64,000 bases of DNA from Bdellovibrionales bacterium (GTDB lineage: Bacteria > Bdellovibrionota > Bdellovibrionia > Bdellovibrionales > CAYMLA01): the NCBI GenBank assembly GCA_965217115.1, contig OZ244239.1, forward strand, positions 224,001-288,000, given 5' to 3'. Shown here one piece after another: positions 34,947-64,000 of this stretch. How positions within the stretch are numbered: the first letter of the stretch is position 1; each line of letters starts with the position of its first letter. The notes under the pieces are model-generated. The model made no database searches and was not told the origin of the DNA. It saw only the letters and a list, made by a program, of their open reading frames with translations. The position numbers were made by a program, and so were the translations under genes.

Positions 34947-37900
34947 CTAATCTACCGCGTTTATTATCTTTGTGAAAGATTTTAAGACATCCCGACGATC
35001 TACGCGAAACTCTTGTGAATTTAGTTTATGCCAACCTATAAAACCTAATTTATTCAAAAATGAATCTTGCCTAGGTATTTTTTTATGGGAAAAGATATAA
35101 GTCAATAATGATCGGCGCATAGAAACGTCATCTAACTCACTCATTTTTAGAAGGGTCTTATCAAAGAGTGGAAATGCTGCTAAAACCTCATCCTTCATTA
35201 ACCAGCCGTCTCGATCTCCATCAAATCTTTGAAAGATCACTTCTACGGATAACAGTATTTGTAGAAATGTTCCTAACTGAGCGTATTCATAATCTCCCTC
35301 CTCAATCCAATTTCGAAAACTAACCTTCTCAATCACTGTATTAATATAATCCTTATCCCATACCAACCCTTCATCCTCATCTATATTATTATTATAGAAA
35401 CCCCCACCGCTCACCTCTGTTATTCCTCTGCGATAACGCCCTTTACTCAAACTCCAACCCAAAGGACTCTGGCTATCTTTAACAAACAAGCTCACTAAGC
35501 CTTTCATTAATTTAGGACTATCCGAGAAATCAGAAATAACACTGCTGTAAAACTCTTTAGAGAAACAAGAAAAAACCAATGAAGGCCTTTCATAAATGTC
35601 CAATCTATCTGATTTGCATTTATCCTTAAGAGATTGATAGATCTCTTTTGCATGTGAAGCACCTGATAAAACCATCAGTATTAAATTAACTGCCTCTGCA
35701 TGGTTAATCAATCCATCTCCATTTGAATGATAGGTCAGAATATCAGCATTTAATGCAAGAAATTTCCAGGTTCCATCTATCCTAGGATCAAAGAGCCCAA
35801 ATTCATAGGCCAACTTTTTGAAATCTCCATAGATCGTCTCAAGAGACTCCCCTTTTAGATCAGAGCCTTCAAGGGAATTCTGATTGTAACCTGAAAGAAC
35901 AAGCCTGACTAAAGAGTTTTTCCAGCTAATCTGAGTTAAGTCCTTATGGGTGTAATATATAGAAGATTCTCTAGAAAAATATAATCGTTCTTTTTTATTA
36001 TGCGCTAAAGAAAAATCAATATTAATGACTTCAAAGAGATTCTTTAAATCCTCGGTTATAAGGTTCTCCTTGGACTTAACCTGCCAAATAGAAACATACT
36101 CCTCCCAATTTTCTCTTAAATCGAGAAGAGAATACTTCTTACCTTCTTCGCGATATATGTCATTAATGAAACCCTGAACATTCAGCCACTGATCAATGTC
36201 CGATTTCATATTAACAATCGTCTTATCTGTAACAACGGTTGTTCCTAAATTAGCTTCGCGTCCAAAAATTTTCTGTAAAACATTATTTAAAACATGGGAA
36301 AGTGTCTCCATAGAAACTTCGGAAAACCTCACTCCAGAATCATAAATACCTCTCATTATATCTTCCATCTCTCTTAGGGAAATACTCTTGCCTTCTTTAA
36401 GAGATAAAACACTTCTCAACTCCTTAGACCATATCTCGATAAACCCCTTTAAATGATTTAGACCAGGATAGGTCACAAGCTCTTCTTTAGAGAGATATAT
36501 ATTTATCTGCCAATATGCTATATAAGTAGCTGAGAGTCCTTTCAAAAAATAGGCCCATTCACCTGAAACCACAAGGTCCTTATCTCCCCCAATCAATCCG
36601 CCTTTAACACTTGTGATCAATGGCTCATACTTGTCTACGAGCTCCACTATTTCCGACCAAGTTTCTTCAAATACTTCTTCTCCAATTTGAGGGGCCATGG
36701 TTGTGAAATTTCTTATGTGTAAAACGCCATTGAATTCATCAAATGTTGATCCCCAATCTTCAAATATTTTTAAAACTCCTTCGAGATCATTAACTACCTG
36801 TGCCCAAGGTAAATGCTCCAATGAGAATAGAGGTAAGTGAAGTTGCAATTTCAAATAAAACTGATAGGCATTATTAATAACCTCTGGAACAGCCCTTATA
36901 TCCTTGGAGTTCCAAATATCCCCTCTTCCTCCTACAAACATCGTCTTTACGTGGGGAATCTCTTCACTCCACTCTAAGGGAAATAAAGGGTCTTCTGGAT
37001 AGTACTGATGTATATCTTTAGTCGCTTGAACGATCTCTGACCAACGAAAATACCCTCGCCCATTTAGCTCAGATGCCTTTGCCAGAGCATTAAAAATGAG
37101 TCTATAATCTAAACTATTAAAAGCAAAAGATTTATCTGGGTGCTTTTTATAAATACTCCAACGAGCAAACTCCACATAAATATGTGAGAGACTCTGTAAT
37201 ATATGTTCCAACTCATGGGGACTCACTAAATCACTGTTCTCTCTGGCTAAAGCCATCTGAAATAAGTTTTGTAGAACCCTTTCATCCTTTAACATATCAG
37301 GGATAGAGACTTCCAAAGCTTCTTCAATCGTTTGTAAAAAAGATGAGACATCAGAAATCCGAATACGACCTTTCTGGGCTTTAAAGTTAGAACTAATAAT
37401 ATTGATTGCCCGTGAAATATCTTTTTCAAACTGGGAGAACTCTTCCTTCGGAATTCCCTGTTTCAAGGCCCAGATATTAGATTGATTAGCTAAAATCTTT
37501 CCTACATCCGTCCAAGTCTGTAACTTTTTAGAAGCATAAAAGAAATCCTCCCATGTCCACTTATCTCTATTTCCTCCAATGACCATTGCTTTAAAAGATC
37601 TAACCCAAACCTCTGACTTTTCATCAGACATATCTCTATTGAAAAAAGGTTTTAGAAAAATAGCGACTTCTCTTGAGCCTATAGTTCGTTTATCCTTCTG
37701 CAAAACACGAGATAAGTTTCTCAACATGAGTTTTAGAGATTCCGGATGTTTTGTGAACCCATCTGGGCCTTCTTTATTTAATACTTCTCTATGCTCTCTT
37801 AGAGAAGACAAATAAGACAAATACATCTGAGATGTTCGCTTAAGAAGCTTAACCCACTGCCCTTCTCTTATAATAAAATCTCTCCCTCCTGTAATAATGA

Positions 37901-39995
37901 ATCTAAAGTTCTTTAAATAGTCAGGTTGAAATATCTTATCTAACACAGAATCTGTATCATCATTATTTTTAAGCCATTCTCTAACAATATGCCCTATTCT
38001 TTTTATTGATATGGATGTACCCGTTGATTCTATTAAAAAACTAATATCTCTCACAATAAGATCTATATTATCTAGGAAATTCTCCCAATCCTTGTGAGCT
38101 ATTTTTTTTGCAAGAACCTTTTTGGGAAAGAGATAGTCTATACTCTTCTCTAATCTAGAAAAATGATGCTTAAGATATTGACTTAATAGCAGAAACATAT
38201 TTAGTTCCTTGAGATTTATCGTTTGACGACTTCCCCCTAAAAACAGTCTCTTTAACTCAATAGTTTTACGAATAAGTTGTCTATCAATATGACGACCATG
38301 GGTTAGTTTTAATGTCATATTTATTAATATGGACAGCTCGTCAACAGAAATTTCTGTGATTCCCTGTCGTGAAATAGCATCCTTTAATATGCCCGCGATT
38401 CTCTGAAAGGATTCTATTTTTTCGTTAGGTGATGACAGTTTTCTGTATCTCTGACTGTACTCACCGCGAACATATTCACGCCATAAACCCTGAGTTAGGC
38501 TAATCAAAGACTTCCACTCACTGACCTTAATAATATGTGCATCGCCACCGATAAAAGTTTTTTTATACTTTAACAAAACCTTATAAATATCCTTCAAAAA
38601 AGAGGGTGACTTCGTAGCCTTTCCATCTTGATTCTCAATTAATTCCATAAGACCAATAAGAGATTTTAATTCATACACCCCTTTAGACTTGCGTAAATAG
38701 CTTGTTATTTTAGAGGACGCGGCTTCTAAAGATAGTAAGGACCTCTCAAAGAAGAGCTTCTCTGATTCACCTATTTTTCTTGGATCCCACTTTAATAAAT
38801 AAACTTTATGATATGGTTCTGAAATTTTCTGGATTTGATGAAGCCCTTCTGCCCAATAAGGAATTTGCAAAAACTCTTCACTTCGTAGAGATGTTCTACT
38901 ACCACCAATAAGAAATGATTTTACCGCCATGAGAGGCTCTAAATCATAATTAATTTGGACCTTATCTGGCCACAATACATGCATTTCATTTAATATCCTT
39001 GTTATTTTATTTGTTGAAATAGCTTCCTTGTCATATTTTTGACTTATATAAGAAAAGAAATGACTTAAATCGTCAGTGATACCCCGAAACGAAGACCAAG
39101 ACTGAGCGTGCCAAATGCTCTTGTCTTGTTGCCTAATAATATCTACACGCAAATACTGCGAAAATGAAAAAGAGAACAACTCCACAAAACCAGGCCACTG
39201 ATGGGGCAATACTTTATCAACAGGCCCTCCAATAAATGCATCTTTAGACTCCCCTACTAGGGATAGGTACGTTCCTACCTGTGATGCAAACATCCATTTC
39301 TTCTTTGGTTGAACCAGTGACTCTAAACTTTTCAAAAAATGAGGGAAACGAGATATCTGGTACTCTTTATTGTTATTTTCTAATAACTTTCCTATACGCC
39401 TTTGAACATGATTAAATTCCTTAAGCCCTACCTGAAGACGATGTTCTTGTTCTTCATTATAATTAGGCCATTTTTCTTTAAAAGAGAAAATATCCATATA
39501 CGGCCTTAAAGCCAATGACATTTTGACCAATTCATCAAACACAGACACAAAACGTTTTAACTCTTGATGGGTTAACGATTTTTCATCTCCTCCCAACAAT
39601 AGCGCTTTGACTTCCAGTATGTAGGAGAGTGTCTCTACTGATACAGGAGTTTTAGTGACATATTTTTCTAGAAGATAAATAATCTCTTGAGATGAATATC
39701 TCTCTTTGCGAGAACCCTCAGCATGCCTATAGAAAATTCTAACTCCCTTTCCCAAGCATTGCCAAAACTGTTGCACCTCTTCTTCCGAAGCTGTTTGATT
39801 AAAATACTTATGCATCCACCCACGAGTTTGCGTAAAACAGGACCCTTTTTTAGAGTCTAGACGTAGAATCGTTTTTTCTTCACTCTCATCAGACTGCTTA
39901 TTCAAAAATTTCCCACAACCTGAAAAAACAACTAAAGAGGCAAACACTATCATCGTATTGAGGCAATATGATCTCTTGAAGAGATTAAAAAACAT
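34947..39995 (-). CDS. Giant helical-repeat lipoprotein with C-terminal EF-hand-like loops, function unknown
   Basis: Lipobox FSG-C27, about 10 repeats of K-x2-(F/L)-(I/L)-GG-x4-h-x3-(E/Q/D)-(W/L/F), DGDRDGWLMKDE EF-hand. Confidence 0.75.
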   Translation of the reverse strand: MFFNLFKRSYCLNTMIVFASLVVFSGCGKFLNKQSDESEEKTILRLDSKKGSCFTQTRGWMHKYFNQTASEEEVQQFWQCLGKGVRIFYRHAEGSRKERYSSQEIIYLLEKYVTKTPVSVETLSYILEVKALLLGGDEKSLTHQELKRFVSVFDELVKMSLALRPYMDIFSFKEKWPNYNEEQEHRLQVGLKEFNHVQRRIGKLLENNNKEYQISRFPHFLKSLESLVQPKKKWMFASQVGTYLSLVGESKDAFIGGPVDKVLPHQWPGFVELFSFSFSQYLRVDIIRQQDKSIWHAQSWSSFRGITDDLSHFFSYISQKYDKEAISTNKITRILNEMHVLWPDKVQINYDLEPLMAVKSFLIGGSRTSLRSEEFLQIPYWAEGLHQIQKISEPYHKVYLLKWDPRKIGESEKLFFERSLLSLEAASSKITSYLRKSKGVYELKSLIGLMELIENQDGKATKSPSFLKDIYKVLLKYKKTFIGGDAHIIKVSEWKSLISLTQGLWREYVRGEYSQRYRKLSSPNEKIESFQRIAGILKDAISRQGITEISVDELSILINMTLKLTHGRHIDRQLIRKTIELKRLFLGGSRQTINLKELNMFLLLSQYLKHHFSRLEKSIDYLFPKKVLAKKIAHKDWENFLDNIDLIVRDISFLIESTGTSISIKRIGHIVREWLKNNDDTDSVLDKIFQPDYLKNFRFIITGGRDFIIREGQWVKLLKRTSQMYLSYLSSLREHREVLNKEGPDGFTKHPESLKLMLRNLSRVLQKDKRTIGSREVAIFLKPFFNRDMSDEKSEVWVRSFKAMVIGGNRDKWTWEDFFYASKKLQTWTDVGKILANQSNIWALKQGIPKEEFSQFEKDISRAINIISSNFKAQKGRIRISDVSSFLQTIEEALEVSIPDMLKDERVLQNLFQMALARENSDLVSPHELEHILQSLSHIYVEFARWSIYKKHPDKSFAFNSLDYRLIFNALAKASELNGRGYFRWSEIVQATKDIHQYYPEDPLFPLEWSEEIPHVKTMFVGGRGDIWNSKDIRAVPEVINNAYQFYLKLQLHLPLFSLEHLPWAQVVNDLEGVLKIFEDWGSTFDEFNGVLHIRNFTTMAPQIGEEVFEETWSEIVELVDKYEPLITSVKGGLIGGDKDLVVSGEWAYFLKGLSATYIAYWQINIYLSKEELVTYPGLNHLKGFIEIWSKELRSVLSLKEGKSISLREMEDIMRGIYDSGVRFSEVSMETLSHVLNNVLQKIFGREANLGTTVVTDKTIVNMKSDIDQWLNVQGFINDIYREEGKKYSLLDLRENWEEYVSIWQVKSKENLITEDLKNLFEVINIDFSLAHNKKERLYFSRESSIYYTHKDLTQISWKNSLVRLVLSGYNQNSLEGSDLKGESLETIYGDFKKLAYEFGLFDPRIDGTWKFLALNADILTYHSNGDGLINHAEAVNLILMVLSGASHAKEIYQSLKDKCKSDRLDIYERPSLVFSCFSKEFYSSVISDFSDSPKLMKGLVSLFVKDSQSPLGWSLSKGRYRRGITEVSGGGFYNNNIDEDEGLVWDKDYINTVIEKVSFRNWIEEGDYEYAQLGTFLQILLSVEVIFQRFDGDRDGWLMKDEVLAAFPLFDKTLLKMSELDDVSMRRSLLTYIFSHKKIPRQDSFLNKLGFIGWHKLNSQEFRVDRRDVLKSFTKIINAVD

Positions 39996-41310
39996 AGGTC
40001 ATCCCCCCGAAAATACGATCATTCTCAGTATATCTGGAAATAAAACCAGTTCTGCTCTTAGCTTCTGCCGATAGTAATTCTAATCCTGCAAATACATCCC
40101 ATTTCGTTCCAATTCTATGAATAAAATCGATGACCGTAACCGTTCCTTTTTGTGATAAATCTCGCAACCAAGTCATTTTTAAAGTTGATTGACCTAAGAG
40201 ACGTTTAAAATGAATTTTCACCGCATTTTGATAATTAAATCGTCCAAAAAAGATAGGTTCGTCACTAAAACTGTAACCCTCTTCGCGGCTCTCTCCTCCA
40301 GAGATGGTTAGGTAAGAAAGACTTCCTGACCAATTTCTTTTTTCCATTGATACATCAACTGAGTATCCTTTAGAGTTATTGTAAACCTGGTTAACAAAAT
40401 ATTCTTCAAATTCAGTTTTTACTAGCCTTTCCTGAATATAAGAAATAGACGCCGTTGTTGAGTCAGAAAAACGATAACCTAAATCACCTGATACAACCTC
40501 TTCCTGGAAAAACCTGGGAAGTAATGTGACCTCAATAAGAGGCTTTTCTCTGATTTTTAACCGTGGACGATAGCTCAGTAATAATTGATTTGCTGGTTTC
40601 ATACCATATGCACCTCTCATCCACCATCCGTCTTTCCCTCCAAACTCTAATAAAACTCCATGGGAAGGTTTGATTAAGAGGCTCTCAAGGTCGGGATGGA
40701 TAGTTTTATAATTAATTTTGGAGACCCCTGTTCCAAGCTGAAATTTCTTTGGCGGGGACTGAAACCATGGGTTACGAGATTCTATATTCCCTTCTCTCTC
40801 CCTTATAATAGGGCCATGATCGGGAATAAATGCAGGGGAGAAAAAAGCAACCCAACGTACTTGAGGACGAATCCGTTCAACGAAAAGTCCTGTTAAGCCT
40901 TGGGCTTTAGGTTTAATATAATTTGAGCGATAACGGGGCTCCCAAAGCCCAAGGCTCCAATCACGATCTATCTGACTCCAAATTATTTTTTTTCGCCCCA
41001 GAGAGATGCGCCAATTGTTATCCTCCCAAGAAGTGTAGACCTCAGATAGATTATAATCCAATTCCTTCTGTTCATAAGTTAATTTCAAATCTAAGGGGCT
41101 TTTAAAAACACTATTGACCAAAGGTTTGTGAAGAAAGCGGGCTTCAAATTTTGATCCTTGCAAAATGCCAGCCTGTTCTGACAAACCGATGGAGGAACTC
41201 CATGTATTCTTAGATAGAGCCGAGAAGTGCAACACATCCTCAGCCAAAATGACTGAGCCGTATCCACCTAAGGTCAGTAAAAATATGGTCACTGCAAATA
41301 ACTGAATCAA
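39985..41310 (-). CDS. Hypothetical outer-membrane beta-barrel protein
   Basis: Start moved to TTG 41310 behind GGGAG, which gives a signal peptide (ORF track starts at 41409). ISLGRKKIIWS..D..W.LGLWEP, amphipathic strands, C-terminal GGMTYVF. Overlaps the downstream gene by 11 nt. Confidence 0.65.
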   Translation of the reverse strand: MIQLFAVTIFLLTLGGYGSVILAEDVLHFSALSKNTWSSSIGLSEQAGILQGSKFEARFLHKPLVNSVFKSPLDLKLTYEQKELDYNLSEVYTSWEDNNWRISLGRKKIIWSQIDRDWSLGLWEPRYRSNYIKPKAQGLTGLFVERIRPQVRWVAFFSPAFIPDHGPIIREREGNIESRNPWFQSPPKKFQLGTGVSKINYKTIHPDLESLLIKPSHGVLLEFGGKDGWWMRGAYGMKPANQLLLSYRPRLKIREKPLIEVTLLPRFFQEEVVSGDLGYRFSDSTTASISYIQERLVKTEFEEYFVNQVYNNSKGYSVDVSMEKRNWSGSLSYLTISGGESREEGYSFSDEPIFFGRFNYQNAVKIHFKRLLGQSTLKMTWLRDLSQKGTVTVIDFIHRIGTKWDVFAGLELLSAEAKSRTGFISRYTENDRIFGGMTYVF

Positions 41311-41571
41311 GTTACACTCCCTATCTATTACTTCCTGTAATTGAATGGGTAGACTAAGTAATTTTAATAGGAATTGCCAGATATTGTCGGTGAAAAGAAT
41401 ATTTTTCAAAGGCTCATAAACCCTGAAAAATTTTTTTCACCGCTCTATTTTGATTTGAAGATGGACACTCTGAAATTTTTACAATAAACTCAAATAACAA
41501 CGATTCTTTATGTATTGAGTGCAGAATCCTATAGAGATACCCAGAAACCCTAGAGTAAGCAGAGGAATAGA

Positions 41572-59315: not shown

Positions 59316-60275
59316 TTAGTTAACCATCTCTTTTTTTAGTAACCACTGGTGAACTGTTTGCAATAATTTAAGAGTCAACCCCCGGCGCTTTAGCTTCACG
59401 TGGCGACCTTCCAGCCAAACCGTCTCTTTGGGCTCAGGCGTCAACTCCTGTTGCCTTTCCATACTTATCTTAGGAAAGAGTTCTTCCTCTCTCCCATAAA
59501 TAAGAAGAAAATCCCCCTTTAACTGAGGGAGGTGCAATCCTGGTTCTAAGCTGCTAAAAGCTTGACTCACTTCATTAGCAGCGATTTTCGCCAGAATATG
59601 AAGCTCTTTGGCTCCTAAAAAAGGGAACTCTTTCCTTCCCTTTTCTTTAAAATACTTATAAGCCAACTCCCCTATCTCAACTCCACCATAACCCAGAGTC
59701 ATCGTCACAAATGGTCGATCAAAGTAACTCGATAGCCTCTGTCCTAAAGGAGAAAAAAGCGTTCCAAGACTCACCGAGACTAAATTCAATCGCGAAGTAT
59801 CAACAAAATCCTGGGCGTAAAGCCATTTCGTAATAGATGTAATTTGACCCGGTATTTTTTCTATTGATTCAAGAATACCCCATTTCAACCATTCATGGAT
59901 TTTCTCAATGTCCAGAGAAACAGGAATCGGGTAATCATAAGTTATAACAATGTTTCTTCCAAAGAGATCTGCTAGTTTAATGGTTTCCTTGGCTGTATCA
60001 AAACCTGCCATAAGGAATATCACAGGAAGTTTCTCTCCCTGCTTTATATCACTGGGAACTTGCATATAAATTTTTATCTCACCCACTGTCTTTTGATATA
60101 AAGTGAGTTCTCTAATAGAGCTTCTATTGCCGTGCTCTCTATGGTCTTTGCGAATGGAAACACTCCAATCACGATAGCCAATCTCAGCAATCACTTTGCT
60201 AATATCAGTCGACCATATTGCTTGAACAGACAAAGTCCCTAGAAACAAAACAATCATTGGCTTAAATGACGGCAT
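59316..60275 (-). CDS. Exported alpha/beta-hydrolase-fold protein
   Basis: Signal peptide ending VQA, KLPVIFLMAG, VDTSRL...SVSLG nucleophile elbow, LLIYG.EE, GRH near the C-terminus. Confidence 0.65.
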   Translation of the reverse strand: MPSFKPMIVLFLGTLSVQAIWSTDISKVIAEIGYRDWSVSIRKDHREHGNRSSIRELTLYQKTVGEIKIYMQVPSDIKQGEKLPVIFLMAGFDTAKETIKLADLFGRNIVITYDYPIPVSLDIEKIHEWLKWGILESIEKIPGQITSITKWLYAQDFVDTSRLNLVSVSLGTLFSPLGQRLSSYFDRPFVTMTLGYGGVEIGELAYKYFKEKGRKEFPFLGAKELHILAKIAANEVSQAFSSLEPGLHLPQLKGDFLLIYGREEELFPKISMERQQELTPEPKETVWLEGRHVKLKRRGLTLKLLQTVHQWLLKKEMVN

Positions 60276-60569
60276 AAAATCTCCCCTATTGGACGGAGAA
60301 GGATACTAACAAATAGATGTTTTTTGGACAAAAACTAAGGGTTTTGCACTTTTTACAAGTGGCAGATTAGCTCATAATGAGACACCCACGGCAATTACTT
60401 GTGAGAACGGAAATAAAGAGTTCTGCCCGTCAGGAGCAAGTTAAGCCTATGTCAGCTTAGCTGAAAATGGATTAGATCACCTTTAAAGAAATTAAATACA
60501 CTTTGTTTATAAACTTGACATAATTGCGCCTTGCAAATATTTAAGAACTTCACTTAAAAATCCGAGGCG

Positions 60570-60598
60570 ATTAAAAGGAAGGAAAGCCTTCTTTTAAT
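60570..60598 (+). promoter_or_regulatory. Stem-loop in the leader of the 60631 operon
   Basis: ATTAAAAGGAAGG-AAAG-CCTTCTTTTAAT, about 30 nt upstream of the GTG start. Confidence 0.4.
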
Positions 60599-60630
60599 AA
60601 ACCTTAGGACCTTTAGCTAGGATGTATTAA

Positions 60631-62319
60631 GTGAGCTTTAATTACGACAAGTCAAAGGAGAGTGCAGATCAAGCGACCCAGTGGTCTTCTTACAGTGATT
60701 TATTTATGGCTCTCTCTGTTATTTTTCTTCTCATGTATGTCACTTCAAGTGTTCGTGAAGGCGCCACCAATATTCAGAAATTTTCTCAATATCAAGAATT
60801 AGTTCAGGAGGCTGATGATCTTCGCGAACAAAACCGTGTCTACGATGCTCTCAAAGATGACTACATACGAAAACAAGCCACTGAAAAAGAAACAGCAACA
60901 TACAAAGAGCTCATGAGCAAACTCAACCTCCTACAAGAAAAAAATAAGAATGAGGCCGGCGAGCTACAAAAACAAGCAAATGACAACCGCGACAAGGCCA
61001 AAGCCCTCAACAAATACCAGCAAGTTATTCGAAATATCATCAACAGTAGCTATGTTGCTCGGGCTCGTATAAACCAACGTGATAAAAAAATTGACACTCA
61101 AAAAGAGGTCATCACTCAGAAAGAAAATCTCATTGAAAAACGTATTTCAGATATACGTAAACTAGAAGAGACTGTTAAGTCTAAGAAACGCACTATAGCC
61201 AAAGGTAAATATCAGATTAAGAAGACTAAAACACAGCTTCGACGTAAGATCACGCAACTCAAGCGATCCTACAAAAATCAAAAAATTTCACGCACTAATA
61301 TGCGCAAGAAAATTGCATCCCTTGAAAAAAACACACGGAAGCAGCTCAGATCTTTAAAACAGAAAAACAACCAATCAAAAACTCAGCTAAAGCAAGCTAG
61401 TCGCAAAATAATCTCTGTTAACAATGCCCTTCTTCAAGCCAAATCCACAATTTACACACAGGGCTTAGAAAAAGAAAAGCTCGCTAAACAACTCACTCAG
61501 GAAGCGGAGAGGACACGGAAAAGAATTTCTAAAACAAAAAGAGAATTTCAAGCTCAACGCAAGCTTGATCGTAAACGCTTTAAGAAAGCTCTCTTAAAAG
61601 AGGCCCTTTCAAAAAAACAGATCGCTCAAAAAGAGAAGAGATTTCGACAACAAACTCAGAAAAAACAACTTCAGCTTAAACAGAAAGTCTCTAAGCTCAA
61701 GAGGAAAATGGATCTCACTCAGGGCCAACTCCAACGGGCCAAATCGCAAATTCAAGCACGCCAAAAACTGGCCCAACAGATTCTTCGTAATTTTAAGAAA
61801 ACAGGTGTCGCAGCACAGGTAAATCCACGCACAGGAGATGTGGTTCTGTCTTTTGGCAAGCAGTACTTTAAAACAGGTGGCTCCAAGTTAAACCCAGAAA
61901 TGGTCGCCCAACTTAAAAAATTCATGCCTATTTATGCAAAAAGCCTCTTTCAGAACTCCAAGATGTCCGAAAAAATCAGCAATATTGAAATCATTGGTTT
62001 CGCCTCACCTACTTATAATGGAAAATACATTGATCCCAATAGTTTGAAACCCAGTCATCAAAAGGCAGTTAGTTACAATCTAGACCTTAGTTTTAAACGT
62101 GCCAAGTCCATATTTAATTATATATTCGACATCAATAAGATGACATACAAATATCAAAAACACATTCGTCCAATGGTTAAGGTCACTGGTCGAAGCTTTT
62201 TAGCCGAAGGAGCCCAAGGACGTAATATCGCCAGCAGTTTAAAACAAAAAGAATACTGTAAAAAGTTTAATTGTAAGAAGTCTCAACGAGTTATCATTAA
62301 ATTTAATTTAAAAAATTAG
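60631..62319 (+). CDS. MotB/ZorB-like protein: TM helix with conserved Asp, long basic coiled coil, C-terminal OmpA-like domain
   Basis: WSSYSDLFMALSVIFLLMY. K/Q/R-rich heptads at about aa 45-390. FKTGGSKL...FMPIYAKSL, IEIIGFAS, NLDLSFKRAKSI, SQRVIIKF. Confidence 0.8.
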   Translation: MSFNYDKSKESADQATQWSSYSDLFMALSVIFLLMYVTSSVREGATNIQKFSQYQELVQEADDLREQNRVYDALKDDYIRKQATEKETATYKELMSKLNLLQEKNKNEAGELQKQANDNRDKAKALNKYQQVIRNIINSSYVARARINQRDKKIDTQKEVITQKENLIEKRISDIRKLEETVKSKKRTIAKGKYQIKKTKTQLRRKITQLKRSYKNQKISRTNMRKKIASLEKNTRKQLRSLKQKNNQSKTQLKQASRKIISVNNALLQAKSTIYTQGLEKEKLAKQLTQEAERTRKRISKTKREFQAQRKLDRKRFKKALLKEALSKKQIAQKEKRFRQQTQKKQLQLKQKVSKLKRKMDLTQGQLQRAKSQIQARQKLAQQILRNFKKTGVAAQVNPRTGDVVLSFGKQYFKTGGSKLNPEMVAQLKKFMPIYAKSLFQNSKMSEKISNIEIIGFASPTYNGKYIDPNSLKPSHQKAVSYNLDLSFKRAKSIFNYIFDINKMTYKYQKHIRPMVKVTGRSFLAEGAQGRNIASSLKQKEYCKKFNCKKSQRVIIKFNLKN

Positions 62320-62326
62320 GAGTTAA

Positions 62327-63298
62327 ATGATGTTTTCACAACAAATTATTCAAGGCATAATTGACAATCTAGTTCTCTTTGCTACAGATCTTCTCCTTCC
62401 ATTAATGCTCTTTAGCTTTGTGCTTGCGCTTATTGTTCGTGGATTGATCTATTACTCTATTTCACGCCATGCATGGTTTGCCCGTGAATTCGAGATGCGC
62501 GTGACGGATTTTCTTGAAACAGAAGATTACCATAAAGAGATCTCATTCTTCCCCACTGTTAAAAGAATTCTAGAGCGCACGTATTATGAAATTTTTGAAG
62601 TTCGCGCTATTATAAAACGACGTAATCCAGACTATATTATGTCCTTAGGTGACCGTGTTTTTCTTATTAATCAAGGTGTCGCTTGGCTTGTTCATGATAT
62701 TCAGAAGCAAGTCCGCCACTTCCGCCATGGAAAATCTGAGAACCCTCCTAAGATTTTACAGATGACAAAGAGTATATTCCAAAAAAATCCAGCCTTTAAT
62801 AGGATATTAGGCCTAGTCCCCGCTGCTCCAGTTAATAATATTCTCAACATTCTTCCTGGGGTTTTTGTCATTGCCGGTATCTTTGGGACTTTCCTAGGAA
62901 TTATGAAAGCCTTGCCCGAACTCGGTGGTATGGACCTCGCTAATGGAGAGCAATCAAAGATGGTCATGGATCAATTTCTTTTAAAGATCTCTTTTGCCAT
63001 GAGTACTTCTTTAATGGGTATCATGCTTTCAGTTTTCCTTAACTTCTATAACACTCTTCTCTCACCCGATAGGAAATTTATAGAAATTGTTGAACGCTTT
63101 GAAAATACGATGGATCTTCTTTGGAATCGATCAAGTAATAATTTACTTCCTGAGAATATCTCTAACTTTGATCAACATAGGGACCCCATTGATGCTCTTG
63201 CCGAGGATGCCATTCAGAGAGAGATCTCAAAAGAGAAAGCACTCTCAAAAAGCGTCTCTCGAATGTCGGAAAAGGTCAATCGAGACAAGGCATCTTAA
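62327..63298 (+). CDS. MotA/TolQ/ExbB/ZorA-like ion-channel subunit
   Basis: One N-terminal TM, a cytoplasmic domain, then a TM hairpin PGVFVIAGIFGTFLGI ... FAMSTSLMGIMLS. AGGAG RBS. Confidence 0.8.
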   Translation: MMFSQQIIQGIIDNLVLFATDLLLPLMLFSFVLALIVRGLIYYSISRHAWFAREFEMRVTDFLETEDYHKEISFFPTVKRILERTYYEIFEVRAIIKRRNPDYIMSLGDRVFLINQGVAWLVHDIQKQVRHFRHGKSENPPKILQMTKSIFQKNPAFNRILGLVPAAPVNNILNILPGVFVIAGIFGTFLGIMKALPELGGMDLANGEQSKMVMDQFLLKISFAMSTSLMGIMLSVFLNFYNTLLSPDRKFIEIVERFENTMDLLWNRSSNNLLPENISNFDQHRDPIDALAEDAIQREISKEKALSKSVSRMSEKVNRDKAS

Positions 63299-63307
63299 AG
63301 AAAAATT

Positions 63308-64000
63308 ATGAAAAAAAGTATTCTATTCTGTATTTCTAGATACACTAAGGAGGGACTAGACTTGATCTACGTCAACAAGAACTCCTTTGTCATTGGTCGC
63401 TCTAAGGAGGCTGATGTTGTATGTATGCATAGAGGGGTGAGTCGCAACCATGTACGGGTCTATGCTAAAGGATCAGAAATCCTCATTGAAGACCTTGGTA
63501 CCTCCAATAACACTAGAGTAGACGATATCGTCCTCCCCACTAATGAGCTTATAAAATATACCCCAGGGACAAAATTAAAATTAGGAAGTTGTAACGAAAC
63601 TTATTTCATAGATATGTACCGTTCTGAGCTTTCCATAGAAGAAGAGGCCGATGATTACTACCAGTCTATTAAAGAAAAAGCACTGACTCTACGTCAAAAA
63701 TCTGATAATGAAATCAAAAGTCTTTTCAGTCAAGCTAGGGAAGAAGTTGAAAAATTATATAGACAAGTAGAGAGAGATACAGAGGAAGAGCTCCAAGAGA
63801 AAAGGGCTTCAGCCCGTCAAAAGGCCGAGCAAGAGGCCATGGGCATACTCTCCGTAGCTAAAGCTGAAGCACAGAAAGAACTAAATAAAATTGAGGATGA
63901 AAAGAATGTTCTTCAAAAAAAATTACAGCAGGAATTAGAGAGCGACTTAGAGAATAAACGGAAAAGTAGCCTTGAAGAGATCAAAGAATATCAAAAGAAC
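63308..64000 (+). CDS. FHA-domain plus acidic coiled-coil protein (partial, runs off window; not in ORF track)
   Basis: ATG 63308, open to the end. FVIGRSKEAD..VSRNH..IEDLGTSNNT FHA motifs, then E/K/Q-rich heptads. Confidence 0.85.
   Translation, partial: MKKSILFCISRYTKEGLDLIYVNKNSFVIGRSKEADVVCMHRGVSRNHVRVYAKGSEILIEDLGTSNNTRVDDIVLPTNELIKYTPGTKLKLGSCNETYFIDMYRSELSIEEEADDYYQSIKEKALTLRQKSDNEIKSLFSQAREEVEKLYRQVERDTEEELQEKRASARQKAEQEAMGILSVAKAEAQKELNKIEDEKNVLQKKLQQELESDLENKRKSSLEEIKEYQKN

Follow-up and report, generated by a model that had tools for sequence, protein, structure and literature searches.

At the end of a 64,000-nucleotide (nt) stretch of a Bdellovibrionales genome (GenBank assembly GCA_965217115.1, contig OZ244239.1, positions 224,001 to 288,000; hereafter the window), three genes follow one another on the + strand, and we are somewhat inclined to regard them as one conserved module of the Bdellovibrionota, made up of a ZorAB-related, peptidoglycan-anchored, proton-driven motor and a dedicated giant partner. 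The first gene, here called B, encodes a MotB/ZorB-like subunit; the second, A, encodes a channel subunit like ZorA; and the third, C, begins with an FHA domain and is cut by the end of the window. An earlier annotation, made by a model from the letters alone and called here the sequence-only reading, had described three co-oriented genes with gaps of 7 nt (B/A) and 9 nt (A/C), and the list of open reading frames (ORFs) agrees. It had also suggested that the system might be an uncharacterised one; no description of the trio was found in the literature searched, which consisted mostly of open-access texts (including PMC13147790, PMC12034629, PMC11946911, PMC12204202, PMC11890865 and PMC12505986). 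Papers are given below by such numbers.

What appears to be new here is a ZorAB-related arrangement of the 5:2 motor class with the ‘tail’ on a separate protein, which is neither canonical Zorya nor MotAB nor TolQR. Flagella, gliding, type 9 secretion, Ton/Tol transport and Zorya immunity all run on ion-driven 5:2 motors, and with each new use of such a motor a different route from membrane potential to mechanical work or signalling has come to light. In MotAB, ExbBD, TolQR and ZorAB, a ring of A subunits around two B helices conducts protons past an Asp of B, and the proton flow turns or switches A relative to the wall-fixed B. The present module would retain the ZorAB core and relocate its long helical parts, the wall anchor being placed on a long stalk and the filament becoming a separate, FHA-tipped protein. 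The trio has stayed together throughout a phylum whose members are mostly predators.

The evidence that the three genes belong together comes from related genomes. With one genome taken per species, a pattern scan detected a relative of A in 251 genomes, and the best 80 of the 251 loci were fetched; judged by record title these are mostly from Bdellovibrionia, Bacteriovoracia or Oligoflexia, nine titles giving no class rank. The synteny check across the Bdellovibrionota that had been proposed with the sequence-only reading found the trio co-conserved. B lies directly upstream of A, in the gene order originally noted, in 78 of the 80 loci, and in the remaining two A is at a contig edge. When the flanking ORFs were clustered, the A, B and C families turned up in 79, 77 and 74 loci respectively. 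Sixty-two loci extend 5 kb or more past A. In 57 of these the C-terminal domain of C is encoded downstream on the same strand (some of these ORFs being split), and in two more it is adjacent on the other strand; the FHA and C-terminal domains occur in one ORF right after A in 50 of the 62. The next most frequent neighbour family, scattered in position, occurs in only 14 loci and is made up of generic two-component (histidine-kinase and response-regulator) paralogues; other neighbour families are lineage-specific housekeeping genes. No fourth conserved gene emerged from the clustering of the 80 loci. The sequence-only reading had seen no zorC/D/E or flagellar genes adjacent to the trio in the window, and this can be extended, since neither these nor gliding genes are co-conserved with the trio among the 80 loci; the same is true of kinase and phosphatase genes.

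It might be argued that the three are neighbours and nothing else, with no shared function, given that their functional link is drawn from adjacency and not from interaction. This is a very remote prospect: the adjacency of A and B (78/80) and of A and C (59/62) is maintained across three classes, whereas all other neighbours vary, and C stays adjacent even where it is inverted. The arrangement is far from one of chance.

A is about 50% identical across the three classes. On a FastTree phylogeny of A, the class labels, which are loose because they are the submitters' labels of metagenome bins, require 13 changes as against a mean of 28.4 for shuffled labels, and none of 200 shuffles came as low. 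The module thus appears to have been inherited largely along class lines. Several loci deserve separate mention. In two from Oligoflexia, L076 (10918-14028, - strand) and L079 (5291-7909, - strand), the C-like gene lies beside B-A in inverted orientation, convergent in L076 and divergent in L079, and no FHA N-terminus was detected in either of these genes. In L014 (10377-19868, + strand), C is replaced after A by an ORF of more than 3164 residues with Calx-beta repeats, which runs off the contig. The 4.7-kb contig L004 is labelled Thioalkalivibrio sp., but its A and B are the same by BLAST as those of the Bdellovibrionales contig L005, which belongs to the same series of samples, and the two A proteins are identical in the tree; L004 is probably a mis-binned contig rather than a case of gene transfer. 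L007 and L008 are two contigs of one metagenome bin with identical A genes, either an assembly duplicate or a recent duplication. Finally, the lengths of B and C are not demonstrably coupled (rho 0.23, p 0.16, 40 loci).

The two putative motor subunits

A is best described as a putative three-helix channel subunit of the ZorA/TolQ/ExbB type that retains just a stub of the ZorA tail. The motifs quoted in the sequence-only reading are all present: the translations read IFGTFLGIM and FAMSTSLMGIM in A, and QWSSYSDLF around the transmembrane (TM) Asp of B. In A they form part of the channel-helix motifs LPG..GIFGTFLGIM and SFAMSTSLMGI, and P177, G184-M193, S228 and G231 are invariant in an alignment of 28 sequences. 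Pfam MotA_ExbB matches residues 172-246 (expect value (E) 1.1e-04, 22.3 bits) and 18 ZorA models of PADLOC match the channel helices (best 2.9e-09); the NCBIfam tolQ model gives E 0.91. When a profile of 28 homologues was compared with all PDB sequences, five distinct sequences were found at E<=1 and all of them were ZorA, namely the Shewanella type I protein (8vvn, 6.6e-06) and four E. coli constructs (1.1e-04 to 3.8e-04). The alignment of the profile with ZorA spans TM2, TM3 and the first turns of the tail base. The AlphaFold2 model of A (predicted local distance difference test (pLDDT) 78; predicted template modelling (TM) score 0.63) has three long helices of membrane length and a cytoplasmic helical domain. 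In a Foldseek comparison with the PDB, ZorA chains take ranks 1-5 (5.7e-04 to 2.2e-03; TM-scores 0.41-0.54), and are followed by TolQ and ExbB, including those of the TolQRA and TonB-ExbBD complexes (E 3.2e-03 to 5.3e-02). Homologues of A carry the precomputed Pfam families PF28082, named ZorA-like_t1 in the Atlas, and PF01618. The suggestion that A and B are closer to ZorAB than to flagellar MotAB is therefore upheld by PADLOC, NCBIfam, Foldseek and PDB profile matches. One survey gives a small beta-sheet of the cytoplasmic domain as the mark of Zorya-type A subunits (PMC12505986, Fig. 4 legend); the model of A has short strands at 73, 159-160, 164-165 and 271, which may fit this mark, although as evidence this is weak. 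The same survey, which concerns MotAB homologues, left Zorya-type proteins out of its phylogeny.

The estimate that A ends some 80 residues after its last TM helix was accurate: 79 residues follow TM3, which ends near residue 244, and the long tail of ZorA is missing. The stub aligns with the base of that tail, the alignment ending at profile position 308 for 8vvn and 271 for E. coli ZorA. In the E. coli protein the tail extends from Gly223 to Thr729, and it is reported to be conserved across Zorya types (PMC11946911). Homologues of A in the fetched loci are 303-436 residues long. A search of 2296 candidates for longer relatives, tailed or fused, yielded none at E<=0.001, which carries little weight as evidence. 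In all 28 aligned A proteins a linker of variable length is followed by a terminus of small residues, mostly K/E, then A/V, then S/A (for example KAS or EAA); an extreme C-terminus that is conserved although the linker before it varies has the look of a docking peptide. Separately, the Atlas contains clusters of short proteins named ZorA (representatives of 359 and 409 residues) in which the commonest phyla are Bacillota and Nitrospirota, and tail-poor ZorA-like proteins therefore exist beyond the Bdellovibrionota.

B has, in its single TM helix, an Asp at position 23 that is shared by 69 of the 71 B proteins aligned, the other two being gapped at this position; Pfam MotB_plug matches mainly this helix, with 16.5 bits. 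The first 140 residues have a mean column identity of 50% in 35 sequences, and the membrane-proximal invariants include E87, Y91, L94, M95, L98, L100, L101, E108 and L112. At the other end of the protein, the PADLOC ZorB1 model matches residues 359-562 (6.8e-25). The C-terminal 180 residues, used as a profile, found one PDB sequence at E<=0.01, 8vvi_A (1.6e-06), the ZorB of the Sulfuricurvum kujiense type II ZorAB structure (PMC11890865, Table 1); with B as a single sequence the best PDB match was only E 1.9. The OmpA-like domain that had been ascribed to B is supported by these two matches and by the motif Y482-N-L-D-L-S-F-K-R-A491, although Pfam OmpA itself gave no report for the B of the window at E<=1. 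This motif is a canonical YNxxLSxxRA, in which N483, L486, S487 and R490 are present in all 71 proteins, and it corresponds to Y151, N152, L155 and R159 of ZorB. Mutation of the YNxxLxxxR residues of ZorB abolishes peptidoglycan binding (PMC11946911). The C-terminal domain of B is accordingly read as a putative ZorB-like wall-binding domain with its binding motif intact. A pair of cysteines, Cys543 and Cys548, is likewise found in 71/71 and fits a periplasmic location of the domain.

The helix and the binding domain of B are separated by 295-601 residues (median 381, 71 proteins), in agreement with the claim that B is the subunit with the extra length. In this genome the proline-free coiled coil amounts to about 360 residues, with a period of 3.54 (power 141, as against a shuffle maximum of 90), and at the textbook rise of 0.15 nm per residue it would measure about 53 nm as one straight helix. 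The sequence-only reading had further described B as a giant, basic coiled-coil subunit. The coil is strongly basic here (99 K+R versus 35 D+E over residues 43-400), but the charge is not conserved, the net charge of the coil in the 71 proteins having a median of +7 and a range of -8 to +74; it is a peculiarity of this genome and no family trait.

The module has two features of the 5:2 class, namely MotA_ExbB channel helices in A and a single TM helix with a conserved Asp in B. It also shares much with Zorya ZorA-ZorB (types I and II; 8QYD, 8VVN, 8VVI): A is homologous to ZorA and closest to it in both sequence and fold (LPG..G.GTF.G.M), and the wall-binding domain of B is closest to that of ZorB, including the peptidoglycan-binding residues and the conserved cysteines. 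Other features set the two apart. Beyond TM3, A continues for 79 residues, as against a tail of about 500 in E. coli ZorA. A coiled coil of 300-600 residues stands in B, whereas in ZorB the binding domain is fused to the membrane helix with no linker, a fusion that the authors tie to sensing (PMC11946911). The gene order is B-A, the third gene is of a new kind, and the trio lies in what appears to be core chromosome and is conserved across a phylum. None of the Zorya effector genes (ZorC/ZorD, ZorE, ZorF/ZorG) is adjacent, in the window or in the loci of the relatives, the bases of this genome past 64000 lying outside the window. Anchor, motor and a long cytoplasmic element are to be found in both systems, but the filament is the C-terminus of ZorA in Zorya and a separate gene here.

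A stator for motility, whether flagellar or gliding, is a further candidate and one to which we give very little credence. B does have a MotB-like helix with a weak match to MotB_plug, its general plan of single Asp helix, linker and C-terminal OmpA-like wall anchor is that of MotA-MotB and PomA-PomB, and Bdellovibrio both swims and glides. An A subunit of the MotA type crosses the membrane with four helices and has a large torque loop in the cytoplasm. A, by contrast, has three predicted membrane helices, by hydrophobicity as well as in the model, and is not MotA-like: no MotA was found among PDB sequences at E<=1 with the A profile, nor among the Foldseek matches listed for the model. In addition, the linker of B is a coiled coil of several hundred residues, the trio has no flagellar context, and neither flagellar nor gliding genes are co-conserved with it.

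The partner protein C

That the third gene encodes an FHA protein is clear from Pfam (2.4e-10, 41.1 bits versus a cut-off of 20.7). To call it an FHA partner is correct as far as it goes, but what the window shows is just the first 231 residues of a giant, putatively bitopic coiled-coil protein. In relatives the full length of C is 860-1550 residues, for example 1369 in L002, the closest relative with full flanks, and 1122 in L028 (Peredibacter sp. HCB2-198). The order of parts there is an FHA domain, a coiled coil of 560-1230 residues, one membrane helix and a conserved C-terminal domain. The coil is a proline-free, mostly acidic helix with a period of 3.5-3.7. A hydrophobic window of 17 residues with a mean hydropathy of at least 1.6 is found in 50 of 54 full-length proteins, at a median of 185 residues from the end, and in 47 of the 54 the flank on its N-side is more positive than that on its C-side, which fits an N-in/C-out orientation. 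The periplasmic part is predicted to comprise about 145-200 residues, so that at least 80% of C would be cytoplasmic. C is therefore considered to be bitopic: the FHA domain and the coil would be cytoplasmic, and the conserved helical domain, some 165 residues long, periplasmic. As C is a giant coiled-coil protein, the system does have a long cytoplasmic helical element, on a separate polypeptide.

The C-terminal domain of C appears to be of a previously undescribed kind and confined to the C protein family. It is modelled as a helical bundle (pLDDT 91-98 over residues 100-240 of the 250 modelled). No Pfam family in it is common to more than one of 46 members, no fold in the PDB matches it at E<=0.001 (best 0.95), and an Atlas search with it gave no usable match. 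A profile search of 1.84 billion representatives found the domain in 634 proteins at E<=0.001 and in 386 at E<=1e-30; among the matches listed it stands at the extreme C-terminus in 150 of 150 proteins, of up to 1612 residues. Neither a nuclease nor any other enzymatic domain was found in C, and PADLOC gave no family at E<=0.01 for two full-length C proteins. A relationship of residues ~210-580 of the C protein of L002 (10997-15103, P0121) to DivIVA/Wag31, Scy or FliH was considered and rejected: its acidic coil does match the NCBIfam model of DivIVA/Wag31 (1.8e-14), and also those of Scy, FliH and ATP-synthase stalk subunits, but far below the cut-offs (54 versus 260 bits for DivIVA/Wag31), and these matches probably reflect a shared coiled-coil composition and not homology.

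The sequence-only reading coupled the machine to phosphothreonine signalling. In the window, C keeps the FHA residues of the phosphothreonine site, G30-R31, S45, H48 and N67, and the Arg/Ser/His triad is present in 26 of 35 aligned C N-termini; this gives the proposal partial backing. It cannot hold for the family as a whole, because the triad is lost in 9/35; nor is any kinase or phosphatase gene co-conserved. All nine belong to the Peredibacter/Bacteriovoracaceae group. They form one clade within the Bacteriovoracia (L018, L027, L028, L030, L036, L037, L038, L039 and L046), and the loss looks like a single event. The clade retains the signature of the FHA fold, as seen from the match of the L028 protein to Pfam Yop-YscD_cpl (1e-08); the C protein of the window matches the same family at 1.9e-08.

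This match, and the order of cytoplasmic FHA domain, single membrane helix and periplasmic domain, are points of likeness to proteins of the SctD/YscD type. The FHA domain of YscD, like that of C in the one clade, is not known to have the phosphothreonine triad. Against this, 560-1230 residues of coil lie between FHA domain and membrane in C, the periplasmic domain is all-helical and without a known relative, and there are no secretion genes near the trio. A looser parallel, by description only, is offered by the Agl-Glt gliding machinery of Myxococcus, which combines a TolQR-type motor with bitopic TolA/TonB-like proteins and the long cytoplasmic coiled-coil protein AglZ. The protein families differ from those of the trio, and Bdellovibrio has Agl homologues of its own (PMC12505986).

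A bitopic third partner with N-in/C-out topology, next to an A subunit with three helices at the level of the fold, is also what one finds in TolQ-TolR-TolA and ExbB-ExbD-TonB. The module could then be an envelope energiser like Tol-Pal or TonB, in which A and B pull on C by its membrane helix, in the way TolQR acts on TolA, for some process of the periplasm or outer membrane, for example the upkeep of the division site or of the outer membrane. The fold of A, which matches TolQ and ExbB also, and the charge bias and conserved periplasmic domain of C would be accommodated by this. We nevertheless think it improbable. The wall-binding domain of B is of the OmpA/ZorB type, not the TolR/ExbD type; C is mostly cytoplasmic and carries an FHA domain, and its short periplasmic part could not span the periplasm as TolA or TonB do; moreover, the module lacks Pal/TolB and TonB-dependent partners. 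Since the features that define Zorya, MotAB and TolQR/ExbBD are thus in each case incomplete here, we place the module only in the broad 5:2 class, as ZorAB-related. In its working it would be most like ZorAB, and more loosely like TolQRA/ExbBD-TonB.

How the module might work

By comparison with the rest of the class, A and B would assemble as A5B2, with B anchored to the wall through its ZorB-like domain, and proton flow past the Asp would turn or switch A relative to B. The long stalk would make wall binding constitutive instead of gated by proximity. C may be the output element, doing in trans what the long ZorA tail does in Zorya: its membrane helix and periplasmic domain would be situated at the motor, and its cytoplasmic coil would relay the signal to a target held by the FHA domain. 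A prediction of the complex from the A protein of L002, two copies of B 1-140 and the membrane helix and C-terminal domain of C gave scores of 0.02 and 0.01 (mark 0.32), which speak neither for nor against binding. The module may serve a housekeeping task of the envelope, of polarity or of the cell cycle, and not flagellar rotation or accessory phage defence. Such a role is thought likelier because of the site in apparent core chromosome, the largely class-wise inheritance and the lack of effector genes; the lean away from defence and motility reflects, besides that site, the absence of effector or flagellar genes, the roughly 50% identity of A across classes and the lack of an enzymatic domain in C.

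In its fullest form the proposal is more tentative, and we would not give it even chances. It is that this is the first ‘tail-in-trans’ machine of the ZorAB type, chromosomal, largely vertically inherited and found only in Bdellovibrionota, in which the ring turns about a B dimer with a wall-anchoring stalk of ~50 nm and which serves housekeeping of the predatory cell, in the control of polarity, envelope or division, and not immunity. Held with the same reserve is its second part, that the output of the ring is passed to the membrane-anchored C protein of 0.9-1.5 thousand residues, and that Zorya is one specialisation of a wider group of signal-transmitting motors. If the housekeeping role is correct, motors of the Zorya type are not only immune devices, and Bdellovibrio and Peredibacter would offer a tractable system in which membrane rotation is relayed along a coiled coil to a cytoplasmic target.

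There is a good deal to be set against the proposed module. Unlikely, but to be taken seriously, is that the trio is a divergent and unclassified type of Zorya, an anti-phage system whose motor senses envelope damage and in which C replaces both the tail of ZorA and the soluble effectors. Of all known families, ZorA and ZorB are the ones that A and B resemble most, and Zorya function depends on a long cytoplasmic helical element together with peptidoglycan binding (PMC11946911, PMC11890865), both of which are present here; were this the case, Zorya would gain a new type in which no nuclease can be recognised. It is harder to reconcile with a C protein that has no enzymatic domain and no PADLOC match, with the lack of any other co-conserved gene, or with the apparent core-chromosome location. 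In addition, A clusters by class, unlike a typical mobile defence system, and in B several hundred residues intervene where the linker-less ZorB is tied to sensing.

Other points concern the evidence itself. Assembly, stoichiometry, ion flow and phenotype would all follow by analogy with the class. A stays under the curated cut-off for MotA_ExbB (22.3 versus 22.9 bits) and B under that for MotB_plug (16.5 versus 24 bits), and the NCBIfam ZorA models match A far below their cut-offs (best 34.4 versus 100 bits). The A tree, made with FastTree only, is not clean by class, its 13 changes comparing with a minimum of 3. Prevalence has to be read as matches in 251 species genomes, of which 80 loci were examined. 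Two loci with room for C, L014 and L054, are without it, and L044 has just an FHA protein of 466 residues. The loss of the triad in nine of the 35 N-termini means that phospho-dependent binding cannot be universal. Lastly, the geometry of B is a puzzle. The distance from membrane to wall in E. coli is about 9 nm (PMC11946911), which a straight coil of ~53 nm far exceeds; the stalk must therefore fold back, tilt or lie along the wall.

The locus and its surroundings

The coordinates of the features discussed above are collected in Table 1.

Table 1. Features of the B-A-C locus (positions are those of the window).
Feature	Position	Strand	Basis or remark
Upstream intergenic region	60276..60630	+	upstream gene divergent; nearest ORF 59316..60275 on - strand
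Gene B, MotB/ZorB-like subunit, 562 residues, GTG start	60631..62319	+	ORF; PADLOC ZorB1 6.8e-25
B residues 1-42, short cytoplasmic N-terminus and predicted single TM helix with Asp23 (codon 60697-60699)	60631..60756	+	hydrophobic segment 22-42
B residues 43-140, conserved membrane-proximal segment (ALNKYQQ.IRNIIN)	60757..61050	+	35-sequence alignment
B residues 141-385, variable, heptad-periodic predicted coiled coil without proline (0 Pro), strongly basic here	61051..61785	+	periodicity
B residues 386-562, putative ZorB/OmpA-like peptidoglycan-binding domain	61786..62316	+	ZorB1 model, 8vvi_A profile match
B motif Y482-A491	62074-62103	+	alignment of 71
B Cys543	62257-62259	+	alignment of 71
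B Cys548	62272-62274	+	alignment of 71
Gene A, tail-less ZorA-like channel subunit, 323 residues	62327..63298	+	ORF, profile and fold matches
A TM1, ~residues 14-46 (predicted)	62366..62464	+	hydrophobic segments; helix 2-65 in AlphaFold2 model
A predicted cytoplasmic domain between TM1 and TM2, residues 47-165	62465..62821	+	invariant K79, L82, E83, T85, Y87, E88 (28 sequences)
A TM2 (~168-197), periplasmic loop (198-216) and TM3 (~218-244), predicted channel helices	62828..63058	+	MotA_ExbB, ZorA alignment
A predicted C-terminal cytoplasmic 79 residues	63059..63295	+	conserved stub (W266, N272, F281, D286), variable linker, conserved small-residue C-terminus
Gene C, 5' part only, 231 residues visible	63308..64000	+	ORF; 3' open at window end
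C FHA domain, Pfam residues 28-93	63389-63586	+	FHA 2.4e-10
C predicted coiled-coil start, from ~residue 105	base 63620	+	period 3.72 in visible coil

A consensus scan of 60276..60630 found no promoter-like site. All genes upstream of the trio in the window are on the other strand, and those near it with a Pfam match are housekeeping ones: an asparaginase-type protein, two ABC exporters, a DEAD-box helicase and a VTT/DedA protein. In total, 38 other ORFs of the window were scanned with Pfam, 32 of them in a second batch at E<=1e-06; this batch includes DnaE, GuaA, GuaB, RelA/SpoT, MutL, MiaA, Gmk, a TonB-dependent receptor and an MscS-type channel. No flagellar, protein-kinase or defence gene was found at this threshold among the ORFs scanned. 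The G+C content of the window is even (0.37-0.44), and the region around the trio is taken, on its gene content, to be core chromosome. Two ORFs on the - strand with overlapping ends, one of 1682 residues (34950-39995) and one of 474 residues (39988-41409), have no Pfam family at E<=1e-06.

An attempt was also made to recognise the trio among the genes of a transposon-sequencing study of Bdellovibrio bacteriovorus (PMC6561027), none of which could be equated with it by annotation alone. The data of that study include four FHA-annotated genes, which are the Bd0472-0474 group and one beside a ribosomal protein gene, and a gene annotated ‘tolQ protein’ that is followed by an ExbD gene.

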